From the NCBI GenBank assembly GCA_012839185.1, contig DUNU01000022.1:25604-89603 (forward strand): 64,000 nucleotides of DNA, read 5' to 3'. The notes below the pieces were generated by a model. The model saw nothing but the letters and a program-made list of their open reading frames with translations. It had not been told where the DNA came from and did no database searches. Source of the DNA: Clostridiales bacterium. GTDB lineage: Bacteria > Bacillota > Clostridia > Oscillospirales > Acutalibacteraceae. Positions within the stretch are counted from its first letter, which is position 1. Each line of letters starts with the position of its first letter. Shown in pieces: positions 10,431 through 19,442 of this stretch. The translations under genes and the position numbers were made by a program.

Positions 10431-10515
10431 TGGTGCGGATAACAGGGCTTGAACCTGCACACCTCTCGGCACAAGATCCTAAATCTTGCGTGTCTGCCAA
10501 TTCCACCATATCCGC
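10431..10515 (-). tRNA. tRNA-Leu (anticodon UAG), CCA encoded
   Basis: I hand-folded the reverse complement GCGGATATGGTGGAATTGGCAGACACGCAAGATTTAGGATCTTGTGCCGAGAGGTGTGCAGGTTCAAGCCCTGTTATCCGCACCA. It gives a 7-bp acceptor stem, anticodon stem CAAGA/TCTTG with loop TT-TAG-GA, a long variable arm and T-loop TTCAAGC. Confidence 0.88.
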
Positions 10516-10655: not shown

Positions 10656-12518
10656 ATGGAACCCATTAAAGTAGATTTTTCAAAAAGTGGAAGCAAGGGC
10701 AGTAAGAGTGCCTATATTGTTCCCGACAAATCCGGCCTTAAAATTGTTTTAAGCATCATTTTAACAATCGTAACCGCAGCGGTTGCATATTATTTTATGC
10801 TTCCTGCACTTAACTTTAAGTCCTACGATTTTTACATGTATGTCGCAATCATTTTAGGAGCTTATGTTATTTGGAACGGCTTGTTTGCGAGGGTGCTTAC
10901 TCGTCCTGAATATGTTCCCTATGTCAAACGCAGGGCATTGGTGCCGATTATTATTTTAGTGATATTCGCTGTTATTTTCGGCATCGGCTATCTCGTATCT
11001 GCTCCTTTTTTCAGAGCCAAATCATATAGCCAAATTATTGAAGTTGAAGAGTATGATCCCGAATCCGAAGATTCAAATAATGCGATAAACAAGATTACAA
11101 ATATTGATAAGCTTTCCGATTTCAATAAGATTGCTCTTATTGACGCAAGTGCAGCGGAAAGGCTCGCCGACAAGACCTTGGGTGCTCTTGCTGAATATAA
11201 CCTCGAATCACAGTTTGAAGTTCTCAATTATTACTCAACTCAGATTAACTATCAGAACTCCCCCTATCGTGTATTTCCGCTCAGATACGGCGATGTTTTC
11301 AAATGGCTTAAAAATCGTACGGACGGTACGGCAGGTTATATCACCGTCAATATGAACACTCAGGAATCTGAATTTGTCAAGACCGAAGAGGGGATAAAAT
11401 ACACTCCGGCAGAACACTTTGACCGTCATTTAAAACGTGTTGTACGCTTTAAATATCCCACATATCTTATCGGTAATATTTCATTTGAAATTGATGAACA
11501 GGGCAATCCTTATTGGCTTGTTCAGCATCTTGACAAGCGTGTCGGATTATTCGGCGGTGATGATGTTGTAGGCATCATTCTTGTTGATGCTTGCACAGGT
11601 GAATGTGTGGAATATACCATTGATGAAGTACATGCAGGAGAAGCTAATGACGGTACTTTCCTTGAATGGGTTGACTCGGTTTATGACGGAGACCTTCTCA
11701 TTCAGCAGTACGACTATAAGTACAAATATTCCAATGGTTTCATTAACTTTTATATCGGTCAGGAAGGTGTTAAACTCACAACCGCAGGTTATGCTTATCT
11801 TACTGACGGCAATGACGTATATATGTACACAGGTGTTACATCTGCAAATACAGACGAATCCATTTTAGGCTTCGCTCTCGTAAATCAGCGTACAAAGGAA
11901 GCATATTTCTACAGCGTGTCCGGTGCAACTGAAGCTGCTGCTCAGTTATCTGCTCAGGGTATCGTTTCCGACAAGGGCTGGATTGCAACTTTCCCGCTTC
12001 TCATCAACTTAAGGGCAACTGACGGCGACTATGTACCGACATATTTCATGGCACTTAAAGACAATAATAACGTTATTAAATCCTATGCAATGGTCAACGT
12101 CGCTCAGTATTCGGATGCTGTTCGTTCTCCCAGTGACGACAACCCCGATCTGAAGGCTTGCTTGCAGGCATATACCAACAAACTTGCTTCAAGAAGCACC
12201 CCCGTTAATATTACTGTAAGCATGACGGGATCTCTTAACACTCCCGCAGAAAATGAAGATGATTTGGGTGACAAAGCGATTGTTACCGGTCCTGTTACAG
12301 ACATTAAAGCGGTTATAATTGCAGGCAATACATATTTCTATGTAACCATTGACAGCAAGGTATATCGTATAGCCGCAACTATCGACAATGCTCTTATTTT
12401 CGCAACGGTCGGAGATTTTATATCTCTTGAATATGTTGAGTCCGATGACGAGATTATTGAGGCAATCGTTGTTCCGCATCCCGAAAATACGGTTGAAGAG
12501 CCGGTAACCACGAATTAA
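10656..12518 (+). CDS. Membrane protein of unknown function (three N-terminal TM helices plus a roughly 500-aa extracytoplasmic domain)
   Basis: 620-aa ORF with SD TGGAG and upstream TTGTAT-17-TATAAT. Hydrophobic segments are LKIVLSIILTIVTAAVAYYF, YMYVAIILGAYVIWNGLF and PIIILVIFAVIFGIGYLV. I recognise no catalytic motif. Confidence 0.7.
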   Translation: MEPIKVDFSKSGSKGSKSAYIVPDKSGLKIVLSIILTIVTAAVAYYFMLPALNFKSYDFYMYVAIILGAYVIWNGLFARVLTRPEYVPYVKRRALVPIIILVIFAVIFGIGYLVSAPFFRAKSYSQIIEVEEYDPESEDSNNAINKITNIDKLSDFNKIALIDASAAERLADKTLGALAEYNLESQFEVLNYYSTQINYQNSPYRVFPLRYGDVFKWLKNRTDGTAGYITVNMNTQESEFVKTEEGIKYTPAEHFDRHLKRVVRFKYPTYLIGNISFEIDEQGNPYWLVQHLDKRVGLFGGDDVVGIILVDACTGECVEYTIDEVHAGEANDGTFLEWVDSVYDGDLLIQQYDYKYKYSNGFINFYIGQEGVKLTTAGYAYLTDGNDVYMYTGVTSANTDESILGFALVNQRTKEAYFYSVSGATEAAAQLSAQGIVSDKGWIATFPLLINLRATDGDYVPTYFMALKDNNNVIKSYAMVNVAQYSDAVRSPSDDNPDLKACLQAYTNKLASRSTPVNITVSMTGSLNTPAENEDDLGDKAIVTGPVTDIKAVIIAGNTYFYVTIDSKVYRIAATIDNALIFATVGDFISLEYVESDDEIIEAIVVPHPENTVEEPVTTN

Positions 12519-12534
12519 ATATTTTATAAGAAAA

Positions 12535-12560
12535 GGTCAATTCCGGATTGACCTTTTTTT
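12535..12560 (+). terminator. Rho-independent terminator
   Basis: GGTCAAT-tccgg-ATTGACC followed by T7. Confidence 0.8.
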
Positions 12561-12609
12561 GTTTTAGTTGTGTTATGATAAAGTCACAAAAACGAAAGGA
12601 AGTAATATC

Positions 12610-13251
12610 ATGAAAACTAATTTAACAGAACTTGTATTTATTCTCGACAGAAGCGGCTCTATGAGCGGGCTTGAAAGCGACACCATCGGCGGCTTTAATT
12701 CTCTTATCGAAAAGCAAAAATCCGAAGACGGAGAATGCTTTGTAACCACCGTGCTTTTTGACCATGAAAATGAAATTGTTCATGACAGAATTGCTCTTTC
12801 CGAAATTTCTAAGATGACCGAAAAAGAGTATTACACCCGCGGTACGACTGCTCTGCTTGATGCCATGGGAACAACAATCAAGCACATCGAAAAAATTCAA
12901 AAGTATGCTCGCAAAGAAGACAGACCGCAAAAAACACTTTTTATTATCACCACCGACGGATATGAAAACGCAAGTCGGAAGTTTAGTTCAAAAGAAGTTA
13001 AAAAACTCGTCGAACAGAAAAAGGAAATCGGTTGGGAATTTCTGTTCTTGGGTGCAAATATTGATGCAGTTGAAACTGCTCATGATTTCGGTATAGCCGA
13101 AGATCGTGCCGTTACTTATCTTTCCGACAATATCGGTACCAAAACGATTTTTCAAAATCTTTCTTCCGCTGTTTCTTATTCTCGTGCCGGAAAGGATATT
13201 ACAAGAGAATGGAAGTCAGAGATTGAGGAAGACTATGAAAAACGCAAGTAG
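12610..13251 (+). CDS. von Willebrand factor A (vWA) domain protein, cytoplasmic
   Basis: MIDAS motif VFILDRSGSMSG, with downstream T (GTTALLDAMG) and D (IITTDGYEN) elements. The ATG at 12610 has SD GAAAGGAAG. The track ORF starts at TTG 12568. Confidence 0.8.
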   Translation: MKTNLTELVFILDRSGSMSGLESDTIGGFNSLIEKQKSEDGECFVTTVLFDHENEIVHDRIALSEISKMTEKEYYTRGTTALLDAMGTTIKHIEKIQKYARKEDRPQKTLFIITTDGYENASRKFSSKEVKKLVEQKKEIGWEFLFLGANIDAVETAHDFGIAEDRAVTYLSDNIGTKTIFQNLSSAVSYSRAGKDITREWKSEIEEDYEKRK

Positions 13252-13306
13252 TTTGATTTGCTTGTAAGTACAAAAAATAAAAAAGCAACTAAATTCTTAA
13301 AAAGTA

Positions 13307-13335
13307 TTGACAAAACAGAAAATACTTTTTACAAT
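13307..13335 (+). promoter_or_regulatory. Consensus-like sigma-A promoter upstream of the sigma-factor gene
   Basis: TTGACA-17 nt-TACAAT. Confidence 0.6.
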
Positions 13336-13341
13336 TACAGT

Positions 13342-13361
13342 GTATCAGGGAGTCCTGATAC
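13342..13361. promoter_or_regulatory. Perfect 8-4-8 palindrome at the predicted +1 (candidate operator)
   Basis: GTATCAGG-gagt-CCTGATAC starts 7 nt after the -10 hexamer. The flanking CAG/CTG extend the pairing. Confidence 0.4.
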
Positions 13362-13514
13362 GCTGTATTTGATTTGGAAAAACAATTCAAGTACAAGAGA
13401 AAGGAATTAAATAAAAATGAAAAAGAAAATATTATTGTCGAAATCAGTAAATTGATATATAAATAAATTACTGTTTATGGAAATGCAGGCATTCCGGGAG
13501 GGAATACGGGACAT

Positions 13515-14060
13515 ATGAATTTTGAAGAGAAAAGAAGAATAGAGAACGATTTATGGCAAGAACATGAGCCGTATATTCGCAAACTTTGTAAATATAAGTT
13601 AGAAAGCGTGCCTGATTGTATTGATGATTGCGTTCAGAATGTTTTTCTGGACTTATCAGAGGCTCTGAATCAAGGGAAAATAATTAAGTATCCGAAGGCT
13701 TGGCTGACTAAGGTTGCTAATAATGAGATTCGGGATATTTACAGCAAAGCGAAAAAAGATGCTGAAAAAATAATTTCTTTTGAATCTCAAAACTTCGATA
13801 ATGCAGATTTAGGAGTGGTATATGATGATCCGTTTTCTGTTGACGATGAGCAAATACTGATGTTAAAAGAAAAAGTACTCAATCGGCTCGATGAAAAAGA
13901 CCGTCAATTACTGAATGACAGATATGTTCTGAATAAAAGCATTGCAGAAATTGCCGAAGAGTATAACACAACTGAGAATAATATTTATCAAAAATTGTTC
14001 AGATTAAAGCAAAAAACGAAAATGATAATCGAAAAAGTCCTTAACGAAAAAAATTTATAA
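13515..14060 (+). CDS. ECF-type (sigma-70 family group 4) RNA polymerase sigma factor
   Basis: 181 aa. It has a region-2-like segment (DCVQNVFLDLSEAL..AWLTKVANNEIRDIY) and a region-4 HTH (LDEKDRQLLNDRYVLNKSIAEIAEEYNTTENNIYQKLFRLKQK). Confidence 0.85.
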   Translation: MNFEEKRRIENDLWQEHEPYIRKLCKYKLESVPDCIDDCVQNVFLDLSEALNQGKIIKYPKAWLTKVANNEIRDIYSKAKKDAEKIISFESQNFDNADLGVVYDDPFSVDDEQILMLKEKVLNRLDEKDRQLLNDRYVLNKSIAEIAEEYNTTENNIYQKLFRLKQKTKMIIEKVLNEKNL

Positions 14061-14064
14061 AAAA

Positions 14065-14100
14065 TTTTTGTAAGAAATGAGAATTATCAAGACTATATAT
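14065..14100 (+). promoter_or_regulatory. Promoter-like module copy 1: TTTTTGTAAGA-N11-TCAAGACTATATAT
   Basis: Repeated with the same 11-nt spacer length and a following G-rich SD at 15534..15569. Confidence 0.45.
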
Positions 14101-14118
14101 GTAGGGGGAGATAGAATT

Positions 14119-14946
14119 ATGATAAACGATAAAGATTTTTTACGCTTTATCAATGACAAGTCTCTTGACGGTTTAACAAAAGAAAGACTTAACACAATAA
14201 TTGATGAAGAGTTAAATAAGCCGGAAGAAGATATGGATACGGCACTTATAGAATATTGTTTAGATACAATAGAAACGCTTAACCAAAACGAACAGGGCGT
14301 TAAAGAAAAGAAAGGAAACGGTGATTCCAATGGTAGATTTATAAAATTCAGGTTAAAAAAGTTTATTGCAGTCGCTGCCGTTGTTGCAGTAATTCTTATA
14401 TGTACGGTTTCAGCATCTGCTGTCATTGACGGTATAAAACTATTTGGCGGTATCGTTGAAATTTATGAGAACGAAATTCGAATCAATTTTACTCAAAGAG
14501 ATGAACAAGCAGATGACTACCAACTTCTTAACACAGAACTTGCTAAAGAACTTGCTGACAAAGGTTTTGACAATGTTTTGTTGCCCGAAGCAATGTTTAG
14601 TGAGAACTTCGAAATCACAAAGAAAGCATATCAGGCTACTGAAGATAACGAAATAAAGCATGTGTCAATAGAGTTATTGATAAAAAAAGACATTGGCATC
14701 TTTATTAAAAAATATGCTGGCATCTTACATATGACCGAGTATAGCAGGGAAGAATATGTTTCTGATGGTCAATTTCCTTACGTAACAAGTGAAGTAAACA
14801 AAATAAAAGTCGGAAATACTACGGTGTATTATTTTGCACAAAACAAAAATACTACAATTACTTATAGAGACGGGTTGAGGATTTATTCTTTTCATATCCC
14901 GATAAGTTTAGATGAAGCATTGGAATTTGCGAAAACAATTAAATAG
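14119..14946 (+). CDS. Putative anti-sigma factor (single-pass membrane protein, DUF4367-like C-terminal domain)
   Basis: Lies immediately downstream of the sigma gene. It has a cytoplasmic N-terminal roughly 90 aa, TM segment FIAVAAVVAVILICTVSASAVI, and a C-terminus ending ..TITYRDGLRIYSFHIPISLDEALEFAKTIK, resembling DUF4367 as I recall it. The ATG at 14119 has SD GGGGGAG. Confidence 0.6.
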   Translation: MINDKDFLRFINDKSLDGLTKERLNTIIDEELNKPEEDMDTALIEYCLDTIETLNQNEQGVKEKKGNGDSNGRFIKFRLKKFIAVAAVVAVILICTVSASAVIDGIKLFGGIVEIYENEIRINFTQRDEQADDYQLLNTELAKELADKGFDNVLLPEAMFSENFEITKKAYQATEDNEIKHVSIELLIKKDIGIFIKKYAGILHMTEYSREEYVSDGQFPYVTSEVNKIKVGNTTVYYFAQNKNTTITYRDGLRIYSFHIPISLDEALEFAKTIK

Positions 14947-14957
14947 GAGTGTTTATA

Positions 14958-15470
14958 ATGAAAAAAATAATTTCGATATTTTTAATCGTACTATTGATGT
15001 TCAGTTTATTCTCAAATGTTGTTCTTGCTCAAGATTTTTATCGGACAAATTCATTTGTCAGCCAAGACGATATTATTGAAGAGGTGTATGGACTGTATAA
15101 TTCAAACAATTATAACGGTACCGGTTCAAGAGCAACAGGTCTGATAACAAAGAATCTTCTTAAATTGACCAAAACGACAAGCAGTTTGAAGATACAAGCA
15201 GAAACATTATGTTCAAGCGATGTTACAAAATGCGGTTTTACCTATGTAAAGTTACAAAGATTGATTAACGGAACATGGACTGATTATACAACTTATTGTT
15301 ATTACGATCAGTATTCTCAATCAAATGGCTTAGTATTTCTCAAAACGATTTATCCTCCTTCGGGTTATAGTTACCGTGTAATTTGCGAACATTATGCGGA
15401 AAAGCCGAAACTTATTTTCTTTAAGGAAACTCAAACGATTTACAATGCAACATCATCCTTGAGTTTCTGA
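14958..15470 (+). CDS. Secreted protein of unknown function
   Basis: Signal peptide MKKIISIFLIVLLMFSLFSNVVLAQD and SD AGGAG. The mature part has five Cys. No recognisable domain. Confidence 0.65.
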   Translation: MKKIISIFLIVLLMFSLFSNVVLAQDFYRTNSFVSQDDIIEEVYGLYNSNNYNGTGSRATGLITKNLLKLTKTTSSLKIQAETLCSSDVTKCGFTYVKLQRLINGTWTDYTTYCYYDQYSQSNGLVFLKTIYPPSGYSYRVICEHYAEKPKLIFFKETQTIYNATSSLSF

Positions 15471-15533
15471 TAAAGAATTAAAATTCTCGAATGAAAAAGT
15501 ATATTTTTATCAAATAAAAATTTTTTCAAAATA

Positions 15534-15569
15534 TTTTTGTAAGATTTCCGATTTTTCAAGACTATATAT
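15534..15569 (+). promoter_or_regulatory. Promoter-like module copy 2: TTTTTGTAAGA-N11-TCAAGACTATATAT
   Basis: Both conserved halves are identical to 14065..14100. It is followed by SD GAGGGAGG and a 9-codon orphan ORF (ATG 15593, MKGVSPMCN*), about 160 nt upstream of the ricin-metzincin gene. Confidence 0.45.
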
Positions 15570-15729
15570 ATGAGGGAGGAAAAAAATAAATTATGAAAGG
15601 CGTGAGTCCGATGTGCAATTAAAACTTTTCTCGAATTTTTCTGCTTTAATCGTAAGACTATTAAATTCAAAAATTAAGTTGTAGAAATTTAAGAGATTTT
15701 GCACACAATTAAGAAAGGAGGATGCAATA

Positions 15730-16692
15730 ATGAGAAAAGCTACAATTTGCGTAATTTTAGTTTTTATTCTTATATTTGTTTCGCCTACCTGTTTTGCATA
15801 CGGACCAACTGAGTTTGAACACGATCATCTGTATTATATACAAAACCAGAATTCAGGCAAGTATTTAACGGTGAATGGGAATAATATTGAGCAAAGATCG
15901 CTTTCTTACAACCAAAATCAGCGATTTTTTGTTCGCTTTATAAAGTCTTCAGATGGATTTGACTATTACTCTTTTATTCCCGACTGTTGCAAGGGGTATA
16001 AGATAGATGTAGAGAATGCTTGGGATATTAACGGTGCAAATATTGGTATATATGGTGATAATACTTACGTGCCTTCAGCACAAAACTTTAGGTTTATATT
16101 AAACAGCAATCTAAGATATCAAATTATGCCAGAAGTTAGCTCAACAAGAGTTTTTGACGTAGCGAATGCAAGCACTTTAGATGGAGCAAACATTGCCCTT
16201 TTTACACGCAGATCAATTAACGATAGTTTAGTAACAGCTCAACAATTTAAATTGTACACAGTTGAATTGAGTGTAATGTCTTATAATTGTGTTGATAGCT
16301 CAAAACATCTTGACTATAGTTGCGAAAGTATGTTTTCTGATTGTGCAGAATTTGCAAAAGATACTTGGAATGGATATAGAGCTGGTGTAGTCAGAAAGTA
16401 TATTCCTATTATAAGACCGAAAGATATAAGTATTATAGGCAAACAAACATTGCCTGCCGGTATTGCTGGAATAACTTACTTTGTAGAAAAGGAAATACAT
16501 ATTAGCATTGCTGTTTGGGATACGCTTACAGGTAATCAAAGAAATAATTTGGTGATTCATGAGATTGGTCATGCTTTAGGAATGGGGCATATTGATGATA
16601 CATCCAATGTTCTGTATTATGCAGTTAATTCAACAATTAGTTTAGAAAGTTCAAATCGGAGTTCTTATGATTTTGCTTATTCTCAATATTAA
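15730..16692 (+). CDS. Secreted ricin-type beta-trefoil lectin / metzincin zinc-metalloprotease fusion
   Basis: Signal peptide ..SPTCFA/YG. Three trefoil sub-repeats end in Q-x-F (NQRFF, QNFRF, QQFKL) with GKYLTV/GANIGIY/GANIALF cores. The C-terminal zinc site HEIGHALGMGH (HExxHxxGxxH) is at 16558..16590. Confidence 0.8.
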   Translation: MRKATICVILVFILIFVSPTCFAYGPTEFEHDHLYYIQNQNSGKYLTVNGNNIEQRSLSYNQNQRFFVRFIKSSDGFDYYSFIPDCCKGYKIDVENAWDINGANIGIYGDNTYVPSAQNFRFILNSNLRYQIMPEVSSTRVFDVANASTLDGANIALFTRRSINDSLVTAQQFKLYTVELSVMSYNCVDSSKHLDYSCESMFSDCAEFAKDTWNGYRAGVVRKYIPIIRPKDISIIGKQTLPAGIAGITYFVEKEIHISIAVWDTLTGNQRNNLVIHEIGHALGMGHIDDTSNVLYYAVNSTISLESSNRSSYDFAYSQY

Positions 16693-16708
16693 AATAGGAG
16701 TGATTAGT

Positions 16709-17365
16709 ATGAAAAAAGTTGGTATTGCCATTATTTCTGTGGTATTGATTTTAGGAATCACTTTGGGCAGTTTTGCTGTTTTAAGGCAAGTTAAAATTAA
16801 AAAATATTCAAAAGAAATATTCCCTATTCCCCAAAACATTGATCTGTTGGAAAAAGAAAAACTTGAAGCCTCATATCTTTTTGACACCGATGACAAGGAA
16901 TTGATGTCGGGAGCATCGCAGTATATAGTTATTGCATATCTCAATAAGATAACCGGAACGAGTTATAAAGATGTTGAAATAGTTAAAGGAGAAGCAAAGG
17001 GAACTCCGTTCACAAATTATACAATGAATATCGTAAAAAATATCAAGGGGAATCTTAAAATTGAAAATGATATTCCTGTCTTGCAGTATGGCGGAGTTTC
17101 CATAGATGGCAAGAAAATGGTTTTTCTTTATCCGTTGCTTGAAGAAAATACGCCTTATGTTCTTTACCTTGATGTCATTGATTCCGATCTTTGTCTGAAT
17201 AAAGCTTATGTCATTCCGGAAGTTGATAGTTTCGAAGAACTTAAGAATGTTTCAGAGACCGACACAAAAATTGATATTATTGAAGAGTGTATCCTTGCGT
17301 ATGAAAATGAGGATCCTAAGTATGCAACTCGAAAAAATGGAAAAAGCCCCTATGATTTAGGTTAA
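16709..17365 (+). CDS. Membrane-anchored or secreted protein of unknown function
   Basis: SD AGGAG and N-terminal hydrophobic segment VGIAIISVVLILGITLGSFAVL. The gene is 16 nt after the metalloprotease stop. Confidence 0.6.
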   Translation: MKKVGIAIISVVLILGITLGSFAVLRQVKIKKYSKEIFPIPQNIDLLEKEKLEASYLFDTDDKELMSGASQYIVIAYLNKITGTSYKDVEIVKGEAKGTPFTNYTMNIVKNIKGNLKIENDIPVLQYGGVSIDGKKMVFLYPLLEENTPYVLYLDVIDSDLCLNKAYVIPEVDSFEELKNVSETDTKIDIIEECILAYENEDPKYATRKNGKSPYDLG

Positions 17366-17435
17366 TGTTTAAGCTGATAGCATATAATGTAACTATGCTG
17401 ATGTAAACATAAATGACTATGGGTAGGTATTTATC

Positions 17436-18347
17436 ATGAAAATCTTGCGTAAAATTATTGGCATTGTACTACTGACAGTTTTCTTAATGACCGTGTTTTC
17501 ATTTTGGTGTTATGGTGTAAACAAAGATGAAAACTATGAACTGCTTTTGGAATATGGTTTCACATCAGATTATCTTGATAACTTAAGTGACGTGTTCATT
17601 GAAAAGATGGCTGATACAATCAGAGAAACGAGTGGGGAAAAACAGGCTAATGATTATTATTACTTGTTGTCCTGCGGCTATCCTAAAGCGTTTTTGGAAT
17701 TGCTGACTGACTCAACTCTGAAAAATATCGTTTCTTCAATAGGAGACAATGAAATTATATCTGTGACTTACACAAACAAAGATCCTGCTTTTAATATGAG
17801 TGACAATTCAAAAGTTGTAATCAAACGTGTTTCCGTCAAAATGAAAGATAAGAAAAGCGATAAAATTGTCGGTGAAACGGTATGCGTATATTGGGAATGG
17901 CTTGACAATAAGCCGTTGATAAGAGAAGAAGATTTTGTTGCAGTAAAATGGAACAGCGAGCTTTTCACATATAACCCGGATTCTTTCTATGCAGAAGATT
18001 ATTGGAAAGAAAACACAACGGATAAGTGGACGGTTGCCGATTCATATACCGTATTGACAAGAGCAACTCAGGAAGCAATCGGTCATTGGACAAAGCTTAA
18101 ATCATCAGGAAACATTGTCGGCGGTGCGATGATTTTCAGTTTGTTATCTAAATCTGAAATAGACAAAAAGACCGATTATACCAATAAGATAACGGTAGAG
18201 TATACTCATCAGTACAGATTGACGAAATTTATAATAATTGTCGTTATTCTTGTTGTAATATTATTAACTGCCGTAATAATTGTATTATCTAAAAAACACA
18301 GAAGAAAAATTCAAAAAACAACTGAAAGTCTTAAAAATAAGGACTGA
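17436..18347 (+). CDS. Exported protein of unknown function with a C-terminal TM anchor
   Basis: N-terminal signal IGIVLLTVFLMTVFSFWCYG. An internal duplicated segment reads LLEYGFTSDYLDNLSDVFIEKM / LLSCGYPKAFLELLTDSTLKNI. C-terminal TM FIIIVVILVVILLTAVIIVL followed by KKHRRK. Confidence 0.6.
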   Translation: MKILRKIIGIVLLTVFLMTVFSFWCYGVNKDENYELLLEYGFTSDYLDNLSDVFIEKMADTIRETSGEKQANDYYYLLSCGYPKAFLELLTDSTLKNIVSSIGDNEIISVTYTNKDPAFNMSDNSKVVIKRVSVKMKDKKSDKIVGETVCVYWEWLDNKPLIREEDFVAVKWNSELFTYNPDSFYAEDYWKENTTDKWTVADSYTVLTRATQEAIGHWTKLKSSGNIVGGAMIFSLLSKSEIDKKTDYTNKITVEYTHQYRLTKFIIIVVILVVILLTAVIIVLSKKHRRKIQKTTESLKNKD

Positions 18348-18452
18348 GTATATCAATAAAGGAAAATTAAAGCATTATTGATTTTTTGATAAAGAAGTAA
18401 ATTTTTCTCGAATATTTCCATTGTTAGATAAAAATAAAGGAATTAAATAAAA

Positions 18453-18884
18453 ATGAAAAAGATAATTGTTCTGTTGACCGTTGTTCTTTGTTTTGCAATG
18501 CTGTCTTCATGCACAACAGGTGAAGAAACGGATAGCTCAACGATGACAACGACGGAGATTAATGCTCCAACCGGACGCGATGACGGACTGCCGCAAAAAG
18601 CAATGATTTTTTATAACGACTGCCTTTATGAAGCCGATCTGTACTTTTTCATGCTTGAAGAAAACGGGGGATATGTTGAAGTTCCTGATGCAAATAAAAA
18701 AGAGGTCTATGAACAGGAACACATTTTGACACCCTGCGGGAAAATAGAGAGCGTAATTGATACTGTGCCGGACAAAAATTTTGTCGGCTACGGAGTAAAA
18801 GAAGGTACACCTATGTACACAGATGAACTTGGTAATCTCTTTATTGAAACAGACGGTATTTTACGGGCATTTGTACTATCTTAA
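18453..18884 (+). CDS. Lipoprotein of unknown function
   Basis: Lipobox LSSC after the signal MKKIIVLLTVVLCFAM. Confidence 0.65.
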   Translation: MKKIIVLLTVVLCFAMLSSCTTGEETDSSTMTTTEINAPTGRDDGLPQKAMIFYNDCLYEADLYFFMLEENGGYVEVPDANKKEVYEQEHILTPCGKIESVIDTVPDKNFVGYGVKEGTPMYTDELGNLFIETDGILRAFVLS

Positions 18885-18905
18885 TTTTGAATATGAGGCA
18901 TAAAC

Positions 18906-19442
18906 ATGAAAAACACAAAGAAAAAACGCAGAATACTAATGTTTCTGTCCGTGATTTTAGCAATTATTTTAATTTCATCTATTACCTTAAGTTTTTATTT
19001 CCTGAGACCATTAAGATATTCCAATGCTGAAATAATAGTTTATAACTTTGATTATCAACCGGCGTTTGACAGTAAGATTCGTCAATATAACGAGAATAGT
19101 CTTGTCAGCTTTAGGAATGAAAATTGCACATTTTCTTCGCGAGACATGAATGATTATTGCAAGGTCAATGTCAGCGTGGATGTATATAACAGAACAGGGA
19201 TAAATGCATTTGTTAATTATATTTATCCGATTACTGACAATGATTTTATTATTTTCGGAATTATTCCCCTTGCCACAATGCAAGCACCCGCAAATACCAT
19301 TTCGGAATGTTACAGTACATTCATCTGCTTAAGGAATGGTAAAACTGATGAAGAAATAATTAACGCAATGTCTGAAATGGATTACAAGATAGTCTTTGGT
19401 AACAGTGTTCTCTGGGAAAATAGTCAGACAATACATTTTTAA
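18906..19442 (+). CDS. Membrane-anchored protein of unknown function
   Basis: Basic N-terminus KKKRR followed by TM ILMFLSVILAIILISSITLSFYF. Confidence 0.55.
   Translation: MKNTKKKRRILMFLSVILAIILISSITLSFYFLRPLRYSNAEIIVYNFDYQPAFDSKIRQYNENSLVSFRNENCTFSSRDMNDYCKVNVSVDVYNRTGINAFVNYIYPITDNDFIIFGIIPLATMQAPANTISECYSTFICLRNGKTDEEIINAMSEMDYKIVFGNSVLWENSQTIHF

Follow-up and report, generated by a model that had tools for sequence, protein, structure and literature searches.

A 64,000-nucleotide stretch of the genome of a Clostridiales bacterium of the family Acutalibacteraceae (contig DUNU01000022.1; hereafter the window, whose first letter is position 1) carries, beside a gene for a small sigma factor of the extracytoplasmic function (ECF) type, two copies of a bipartite element, TTTTTGTAAGA-N11-TCAAGACTATATAT, which raises the question of what protein reads this element and what is switched on from it. 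Two answers had been offered in the original prediction: the element is either the target promoter of the adjacent ECF sigma factor, defining a two-promoter regulon, or a scar left when a cassette duplication carried along the 5′ end of the anti-sigma gene. Comparison with related cassettes speaks for the former. It is most likely, with a probability that we put at roughly four in five, that the upstream sigma factor reads the two copies as its cognate promoters, P1 and P2, within the circuit proposed below, because the element is bipartite, oriented, fixed in its spacing, bound to the cassette and co-varying with the sigma factor, the only DNA-binding protein that is conserved in the module. 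The parts of the module, all on the + strand of the window, are as follows.

13307–13335, + strand: housekeeping-type promoter of the sigma gene, TTGACA-17-TACAAT, with 11 of 12 consensus matches and without a cognate box
13336–13367, + strand: hairpin at the start of the sigma leader, with a 14-bp stem and a T-tract, directly 3′ of the sigma promoter
13515–14060, + strand: ECF-type sigma factor of 181 amino acids (aa), with regions 2 and 4 only (Pfam, TIGR02937)
14065–14100, + strand: P1, candidate cognate promoter, copy 1; −35 box TGTAAGA at 14069–14075, −10 box GACTATAT at 14091–14098, predicted start at about 14101–14106
14104–14110, + strand: ribosome-binding site (RBS) of the anti-sigma gene, GGGGGAG, 5 nt past the −10 box
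14119–14946, + strand: putative membrane anti-sigma factor of 275 aa, with a helical cytoplasmic N-terminus, one transmembrane (TM) helix and an extracellular beta domain
14958–15470, + strand: p170, a secreted 170-aa beta-sandwich protein, always the third gene of the module
15534–15569, + strand: P2, candidate cognate promoter, copy 2; −35 box at 15538–15544, −10 box at 15560–15567, predicted start at about 15570–15575
15593–15622, + strand: 9-codon open reading frame (ORF; MKGVSPMCN) in the P2 leader

The repeated element in the window

A pattern search allowing up to 3 mismatches found TTTTTGTAAGA-N11-TCAAGACTATATAT twice on the + strand, at 14065–14100 and 15534–15569, with both halves identical between the copies and a spacer of equal length, just as had been described from the letters, and the chance expectation for such a pattern in the window is 0 in 100 shuffles. 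Extending the search at the same tolerance to the whole 1.93-Mb genome, as had been proposed for finding further copies, added a single match with 3 mismatches, and the motif is hence not frequent. When the genome was scanned with a matrix derived from the related sites, the two copies scored 36.2 and 32.7 bits and the runner-up 16.3 bits.

Copy 1 separates the stop codon of the sigma gene from the RBS and ATG (14119) of the gene for the 275-aa membrane protein, and copy 2 lies 64 nt past the p170 stop codon and 160 nt ahead of a gene for a ricin-lectin/metzincin protein. A G-rich Shine–Dalgarno-like tract and an ATG do follow each copy: GGGGGAG and ATG 14119 after copy 1, and GAGGGAGG (15572–15579) after copy 2, with the 9-codon ORF beginning 13 nt further on. 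This short ORF is probably incidental; relatives have ORFs of 2–9 codons with unrelated sequences, or none, and this lack of conservation led us to reject a role as a leader peptide. Folding of the P2 leader is no better than that of its shuffled versions (z = +0.78), Rfam gave zero matches over 13200–16000, and the two half-sites show no mutual complementarity. The leader also contains GTAAGACTAT at 15652–15661, corresponding to the half-sites joined without a spacer, which is probably a chance occurrence.

The element had been said to be a poor match to TTGACA/TATAAT, and a consensus scan for sigma-70-type promoters (TTGACA-16 to 18-TATAAT, at least 9 of 12 matches) indeed listed neither copy; the best SigA-like reading, TTGTAA-17-GACTAT, reaches 7 of 12 by manual count. 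The box sequence GACTATAT yielded nothing relevant in a literature search.

The element in related cassettes

The sigma factor is absent from the same-genus genome and, among 60 relatives, is present in one (locus G022); a search of genome contigs with the sigma protein alone gave two distant, uninformative loci. Its homologues, 60–74% identical, form about 200 clusters in metagenomes and metagenome-assembled genomes, the sources of which are labelled Clostridia, Acutalibacteraceae, Oscillospiraceae and Ruminococcaceae. The comparison set consists of 14 distinct cassettes with sigma factors 26–74% identical, 12 of which keep the gene order sigma, anti-sigma-like, p170; the other two are decayed.

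In the relatives the element reduces to the core TTTGTAAGA-N15-GACTATAT, always in the direction of the genes, and the fuller consensus is TT-TGTAAGA-N15-(A)GACTATAT; the TCAA before GAC and the AT after it are a lineage-specific identity of the window copies, beyond the core common to the relatives. Site 1 follows the sigma stop codon and precedes the anti-sigma RBS in 14 cassettes, and all copies share one geometry, namely the box, 4–7 nt, GGAGG, and an ATG 16–21 nt past the box. Site 2, present in most cassettes, is found 100–150 nt past p170 and 140–190 nt ahead of the first cargo gene, with an intrinsic terminator just ahead of it in most loci. The corresponding interval of the window (15471–15533) is without the terminator (AAAAAGTCTCG...CGAGACTTTTTT) that parts p170 from P2 in most relatives, a weak GAATTAAAATTC hairpin being left. 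Two families have, in addition, a site 3 ahead of further cargo, that is, of VanZ in L013/14/31/32 and of the gene at 16111 in L018. A matrix scan of 237 kb of cassette loci found no boxes beyond sites 1–3, all of which are in gene orientation.

In a logo built from 22 non-identical sites in 12 cassettes, GACTATAT is invariant (22/22) and TGTAAGA is near-invariant (1.1–2.6 bits per position), separated by a spacer that is 15 nt long in 20 of the 22 sites, 14 nt in one and 16 nt in another, and unconserved in sequence. The flanks contribute two T's before the −35 block, an A before the −10 block and TG/TA 4–5 nt after the −10 block; a T-tract lies upstream of the motif, and the site is non-palindromic. 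The element has, in short, the make-up by which an ECF promoter is recognised, a bipartite −35/−10 target with a set spacing that is conserved in the group.

The homology between loci stops about 15 nt past the −10 box of site 2, from which it follows that P2 would form the 3′ edge of a mobile regulatory module, with the cargo being exchanged behind it.

Co-variation, decay and reverse association

Where the element changes among the cassettes, the sigma factor changes with it. In L036/L037, with a sigma factor 40% identical, TGTAATT stands at both sites and the NNIYQK in the recognition helix of region 4.2 is replaced by NLIQQQ, and in L034/L035, with a sigma factor 27% identical, the box is TGTCACA and region 4.2 is very different. 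Across these changes in L034–L037, the motifs of region 2 (DDCxQ and WLxxVxxN) and the −10 box stay constant.

In the two decayed cassettes the box contains 1–2 mismatches, the −10 boxes being mutated to GACCATAT and GACATTAT (L027/L028 and L029/L030). The anti-sigma gene of L027/L028 (8544–9000) is a truncated pseudogene that has lost its RBS and start, and in L029/L030 (8550–10000) only the signal peptide of p170 is left and the cargo is lost.

The association was also examined in the reverse direction, by searching metagenome and viral collections with the exact motif (20 specified bases). The search returned 14 metagenome loci and 1 viral locus, and 13 of these 15 are the cassette itself, where the motif occupies site 1, site 2 or both. 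The remaining two matches (L051 507–543 and L052 3348–3384) lie within long unrelated ORFs, one in a contig encoding a eukaryote-like RRM/chromodomain protein and the other in a large viral contig, and are due to chance. Among 400 genomes from the same order, there are 3 isolated occurrences of the 15-base core, approximately the rate of a reversed-pattern control, and these three have neither the T-rich tract upstream nor a sigma homologue within 1.5 kb. The position in 14 cassettes, the unconserved spacer, the co-variation, the decay and the reverse association thus together lend strong support to the first half of the original prediction, that of a target promoter of the adjacent ECF sigma factor with a regulon of two promoters.

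Alternative explanations

If a local duplication had placed a second 5′ end of the anti-sigma gene, with promoter and RBS, in front of the metalloprotease gene, the complete identity of the two halves would be explained, as would the G-rich RBS-like tract and the ...ATTATGA that come after both window copies. The same ...GACTATATATATGAGAGGA follows the site 2 of G022, however, and the tract is therefore old and does not stem from a recent copying of site 1; likewise, protein identities of 26–74% mean that the other loci are not recent copies of the window. Moreover, site 2 is found with sigma factors merely 40–51% identical and with unrelated cargo, and the boxes alone are conserved, not the spacer and the flanks, so that the scar proposed as the second answer is rejected. 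Another explanation that does without a promoter as the primary function is a recombination or docking site for the exchange of cargo. The abrupt end of homology between cassettes about 15 nt past site 2, with unrelated cargo beyond, and the serine recombinase, TnpV, Mob_Pre and relaxase genes carried by the loci would fit such a site, but site 1 is flanked by conserved genes on both sides, at a set distance from the anti-sigma start, third copies stand inside cargo regions ahead of genes, the site has neither inverted-repeat nor core-site symmetry, and no recombinase is conserved with the module; we regard this explanation as very improbable.

The two remaining explanations keep a regulatory function and change its reader. 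The motif could be an operator for a regulator that is not a sigma factor, or for the sigma-like protein if it worked as a conventional transcription factor, with transcripts starting from unrecognised housekeeping promoters nearby. HTH_3/XRE genes do occur near some cassettes, an invariant block of 8 nt is long for an ECF −10 element, and the promoter assignment is drawn from sequence; yet the module has no second conserved DNA-binding gene (the upstream neighbour in the window encodes a vWA protein), the site is asymmetric with a fixed orientation and a fixed −35/−10-like spacing, neither site is overlapped by a sigma-70-type promoter, and sigma regions 2 and 4 are both present in the protein, points which together leave the operator a slight chance. 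The promoter could also be read by an alternative sigma factor of the host, for example one like the flagellar SigD/FliA or like SigH, as the element loosely resembles what we take to be the SigD/FliA sequence, TAAA-N15-GCCGATAT, with agreement at 6 of 8 positions in the −10 part. Against a host sigma factor, the genome holds the two sites and none at any other gene, the motif follows the cassette from host to host and is missing in 400 related genomes without the cassette, and its −35 half co-varies with region 4.2 of the cassette sigma factor; a host reader is accordingly most improbable.

The interpretation as cognate promoters of the cassette sigma factor has difficulties of its own, which we weigh here together. 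Besides the derivation from sequence comparison and the 8-nt invariant −10 block, which exceeds the typical length in ECF promoters, the box is unlike the AAC/CGT consensus usual for ECF sigma factors, and the predicted P1 start would leave the anti-sigma RBS at the extreme 5′ end of the mRNA. Since the terminator before P2 is absent in the window, read-through from P1 may add to the expression of the cargo. Many of the loci are related, and the sites are for this reason not fully independent. Finally, the anti-sigma assignment is made from position, topology and domain matches below threshold.

The sigma factor and its promoter

The 181-aa protein has the layout of an ECF (group 4) sigma factor, with sigma2 and sigma4 only within about 170–200 aa: Pfam places Sigma70_r2 at residues 13–80 and Sigma70_r4_2 at residues 120–167, with no r3, and TIGR02937 (sigma70-ECF) matches at 75.3 bits against a cut-off of 42.9. 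Among the best 25 of the 32 NCBIfam matches, the subfamily and equivalog models of named ECF subgroups (SigM, SigX, SigZ, SigV, SigW and others) score far under their cut-offs, for example SigZ at 35 against 212. The sole match of the protein to the PDB sequences is CnrH (E = 0.014), and a profile of the family found nothing there at E ≤ 0.001.

The housekeeping-type promoter in front of the window sigma gene is replaced in the relatives by an extended −10 sequence (TGTTATAAT or TGATATAAT) lying some 140 nt ahead of the sigma gene. A matrix scan found no cognate box of at least 13 bits upstream of the sigma gene in any of the 14 loci, and positive autoregulation from a cognate promoter at that place, a usual though not obligatory trait of ECF sigma factors, is thus not seen in this group. 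The sigma leader of other loci contains palindromes differing from the hairpin of the window, such as TTGTCACATTATGACAA in L013 and TTGCATTTTAAGCAA in L015, which suggests that these palindromes are a conserved structural feature (an operator, a 5′ hairpin or an attenuator) governing the synthesis of the sigma factor.

The anti-sigma-like membrane protein

The ATG at 14119 is taken as the true start of the 275-aa protein because its homologues begin with M-x-(N/T)-D-K-(D/E)-F-L. Pfam DUF4179 and DUF4367 match the protein weakly and below their cut-offs (DUF4179 at 17.4 against a gathering score of 30.1), and none of the anti-sigma domain models matched it. These sub-threshold matches, together with the position behind the sigma gene and the topology, lead us to infer that the product is an anti-sigma factor. 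An AlphaFold model has a mean predicted local distance difference test score (pLDDT) of 69.6. A fold search with the ectodomain placed MucB and RseB best, at a probability of 0.96–0.97, but with E of about 0.01–0.05 and a TM-score of 0.2, and it gave no significant match (all E > 0.001).

The TM helix terminates in (S/T)(A/V)SA (residues 95–101) in almost every one of 42 aligned homologues, including those with as little as 28% identity. The appearance of this motif suggests a masked signal peptidase I site, resembling the one used in the site-1 cleavage of RsiV and RsiP.

p170, the cargo and the surroundings

All 134 homologues of p170 are hypothetical proteins, and none has a Pfam family. 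Its structural model is confident (pLDDT 84.6), and a fold search with it found nothing significant (E > 0.001), only a weak NEAT/Ig-like likeness. The genes behind P2, presumably driven by it on account of their position, are the following.

15730–19442, + strand: cargo stretch, presumably P2-driven
15730–16692, + strand: ricin-B/metzincin gene with ATG 15730 (Pfam RicinB_lectin_2 and Peptidase_M10)
16667–17365, 17436–18347, 18453–18884 and 18906–19442, + strand: four further cargo genes behind P2

On the + strand of this stretch there are zero further cognate boxes and zero terminator-like sites. Over 13.5–19.5 kb, which spans the sigma gene through the cargo, the G+C content is 32–33%; the flanks have about 40%, a difference in keeping with horizontal acquisition. 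Neither the cargo genes of the window nor its upstream neighbours have homologues in any other cassette locus; the genes at 10656–13251, for a 620-aa membrane protein and the vWA protein, are of normal G+C content. A tRNA-Leu gene lies near the island (10431–10515, − strand).

In the other cassettes, the genes past p170 differ from one to the next and encode an RHS/YD protein, DUF3289, a Zn phospholipase C-like protein, ATP-binding cassette (ABC) transporters or VanZ. The varied cargo behind P2 is located as follows.

L018: 10630–14268
L021: 3345–5552
L015: 10304–11311
L011: 11778–15465

Such a range suggests functions in antagonism or as exo-enzymes. Where RHS/YD-shell proteins are the cargo, they come with small downstream genes. 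In L027 (8998–10633), which has lost P2, what lies downstream codes for a papain-like peptidase with dockerin. The cassettes often adjoin genes for TnpV, Mob_Pre, relaxase, serine recombinase or integrase; the presence of TnpV together with Mob_Pre, relaxase and a large serine recombinase or integrase nearby indicates that the module rides on mobilisable transposon-like or integrative elements. A TnpV gene with a 50-aa ORF is often found upstream of the sigma gene (L013, L014, L021, L031, L032 and L035).

Proposed circuit and its meaning

In the proposed circuit, the sigma gene would be transcribed from its housekeeping-type promoter, and the sigma protein would be kept at the membrane by the single-pass anti-sigma-like product of the next gene. 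It is assumed that, once freed in response to a signal that we infer, the sigma factor takes RNA polymerase to P1, with transcription probably starting at the conserved TG/TA 4–5 nt past the −10 box, and thereby brings about more anti-sigma factor and p170, a negative feedback that would reset the system. The freed sigma factor would also act at P2 and switch on the cargo, here the ricin-lectin/metzincin protease and four other exported proteins, and in some relatives a P3 would drive further cargo. Sigma gene, P1, anti-sigma gene, p170 and P2 may be regarded as one horizontally mobile module ending 3′ at P2, with a cargo specific to the host.

Very probably, the same promoter, sigma factor, anti-sigma factor and p170 travel together on mobile DNA of gut Clostridia and serve different toxin-like genes in each host. 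We further speculate, as a tentative idea that is more doubtful than the promoter assignment, that the module is a mobile "sense-and-fire" platform of gut Oscillospirales, in which P2 is the docking end for swapped antagonistic exoproteins, the LolA-like ectodomain and p170 sense a trigger outside the cell, a signal-peptidase cut at (S/T)(A/V)SA relays it after the manner of RsiV and RsiP, and anti-sigma synthesis from P1 makes the response pulse-like. RHS/YD toxins, DUF3289 proteins, phospholipase C, metzincin or cysteine proteases and ABC exporters might then make up the repertoire of such a platform, though we hold this, too, to be on the unlikely side.

An ECF-type sigma factor with its target promoter is a known kind of system; this case stands out in that positive autoregulation is lacking, that the module is mobile and that toxin-like cargoes are swapped while the promoter in front of them stays in place. 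The analysis assigns a precise candidate promoter, with 15–20 informative bases that genomes hardly contain anywhere else, to an uncharacterised family of ECF-like sigma factors extending over roughly 200 sequence clusters in gut and rumen-type Clostridia, and it predicts the whole regulon in each host, consisting of two or three transcription units. It would also explain how unrelated genes for toxin-like proteins and exo-enzymes on mobile elements come to share one switch. The motif can be used as a marker for cassette cargo genes in metagenomes, and the sigma factor, anti-sigma factor and promoter may provide a compact, probably orthogonal expression switch.

Comparison with known systems

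The circuit proposed for the window is worth comparing with several systems in which a small sigma factor governs a local set of genes or is controlled from the membrane. The sigma-70-family factors of the TcdR/UviA/BotR/TetR type stand beside the toxin or bacteriocin genes that they switch on, on variable or mobile loci. They form a group of their own, are positively autoregulated, use different promoter boxes and, to our knowledge, are without the pair of membrane anti-sigma factor and p170 that characterises the cassette; none of the best 25 of the 32 NCBIfam matches to the window sigma factor is named for that family. With RseA–RseB of Escherichia coli and MucA–MucB of Pseudomonas aeruginosa, the window would share a LolA-like sensor domain coupled to a membrane anti-sigma factor, periplasmic in those two systems. 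In the window, however, the LolA-like domain is fused to the putative anti-sigma factor instead of being a separate protein, the organism is monoderm, and the fold matches are weak.

The sigV and sigP genes each have an upstream promoter through which they are positively autoregulated, unlike the sigma gene of the window. Their products, in sigmaV–RsiV of Bacillus and Clostridioides and sigmaP–RsiP of Bacillus thuringiensis (ECF30), are Firmicute ECF sigma factors with a single-pass anti-sigma factor and a DUF4179 match at the TM region, and the site-1 cleavage of RsiV and RsiP is carried out by signal peptidase (PMC6066255, PMC8844934). The conserved (S/T)(A/V)SA at the end of the TM helix may be a further likeness to the window, whose protein differs in that DUF4179 matches below the cut-off (17.4 against 30.1) and in having a LolA/RseB-like ectodomain in place of the lysozyme-binding domain of RsiV. 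Group ECF258 of the ECF classification 2.0, found in Firmicutes only, combines a DUF4179 anti-sigma factor with an association with ABC transporters (Casas-Pastor et al. 2021, PMC7826278); compared by this group description, several of the present cassettes are alike in carrying ABC transporter cargo.

A known case of the architecture is sigH–rshA of Corynebacterium glutamicum, in which the sigma factor is expressed from housekeeping promoters and a sigma-dependent promoter serves the anti-sigma gene alone, an arrangement read as a fast shut-off (Busche et al. 2012, PMC3489674). As in the window, the sigma and anti-sigma genes are adjacent, and this architecture provides an experimental precedent for the circuit proposed here (PMC3489674). 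By sequence position, the window shows the same layout, with a housekeeping promoter before the sigma gene and the candidate cognate promoter between the two genes. The components are different: RshA is a soluble zinc/redox anti-sigma factor of Actinobacteria, and its sigma factor commands a large chromosomal regulon through promoters of the GGAA/GTT type, whereas the window type has a putative membrane anti-sigma factor and two to three candidate promoters of unrelated sequence inside a mobile cassette. The cassette would thus represent a second, independent ECF circuit in which the anti-sigma gene alone, and not the sigma gene, is placed under the control of the sigma factor.

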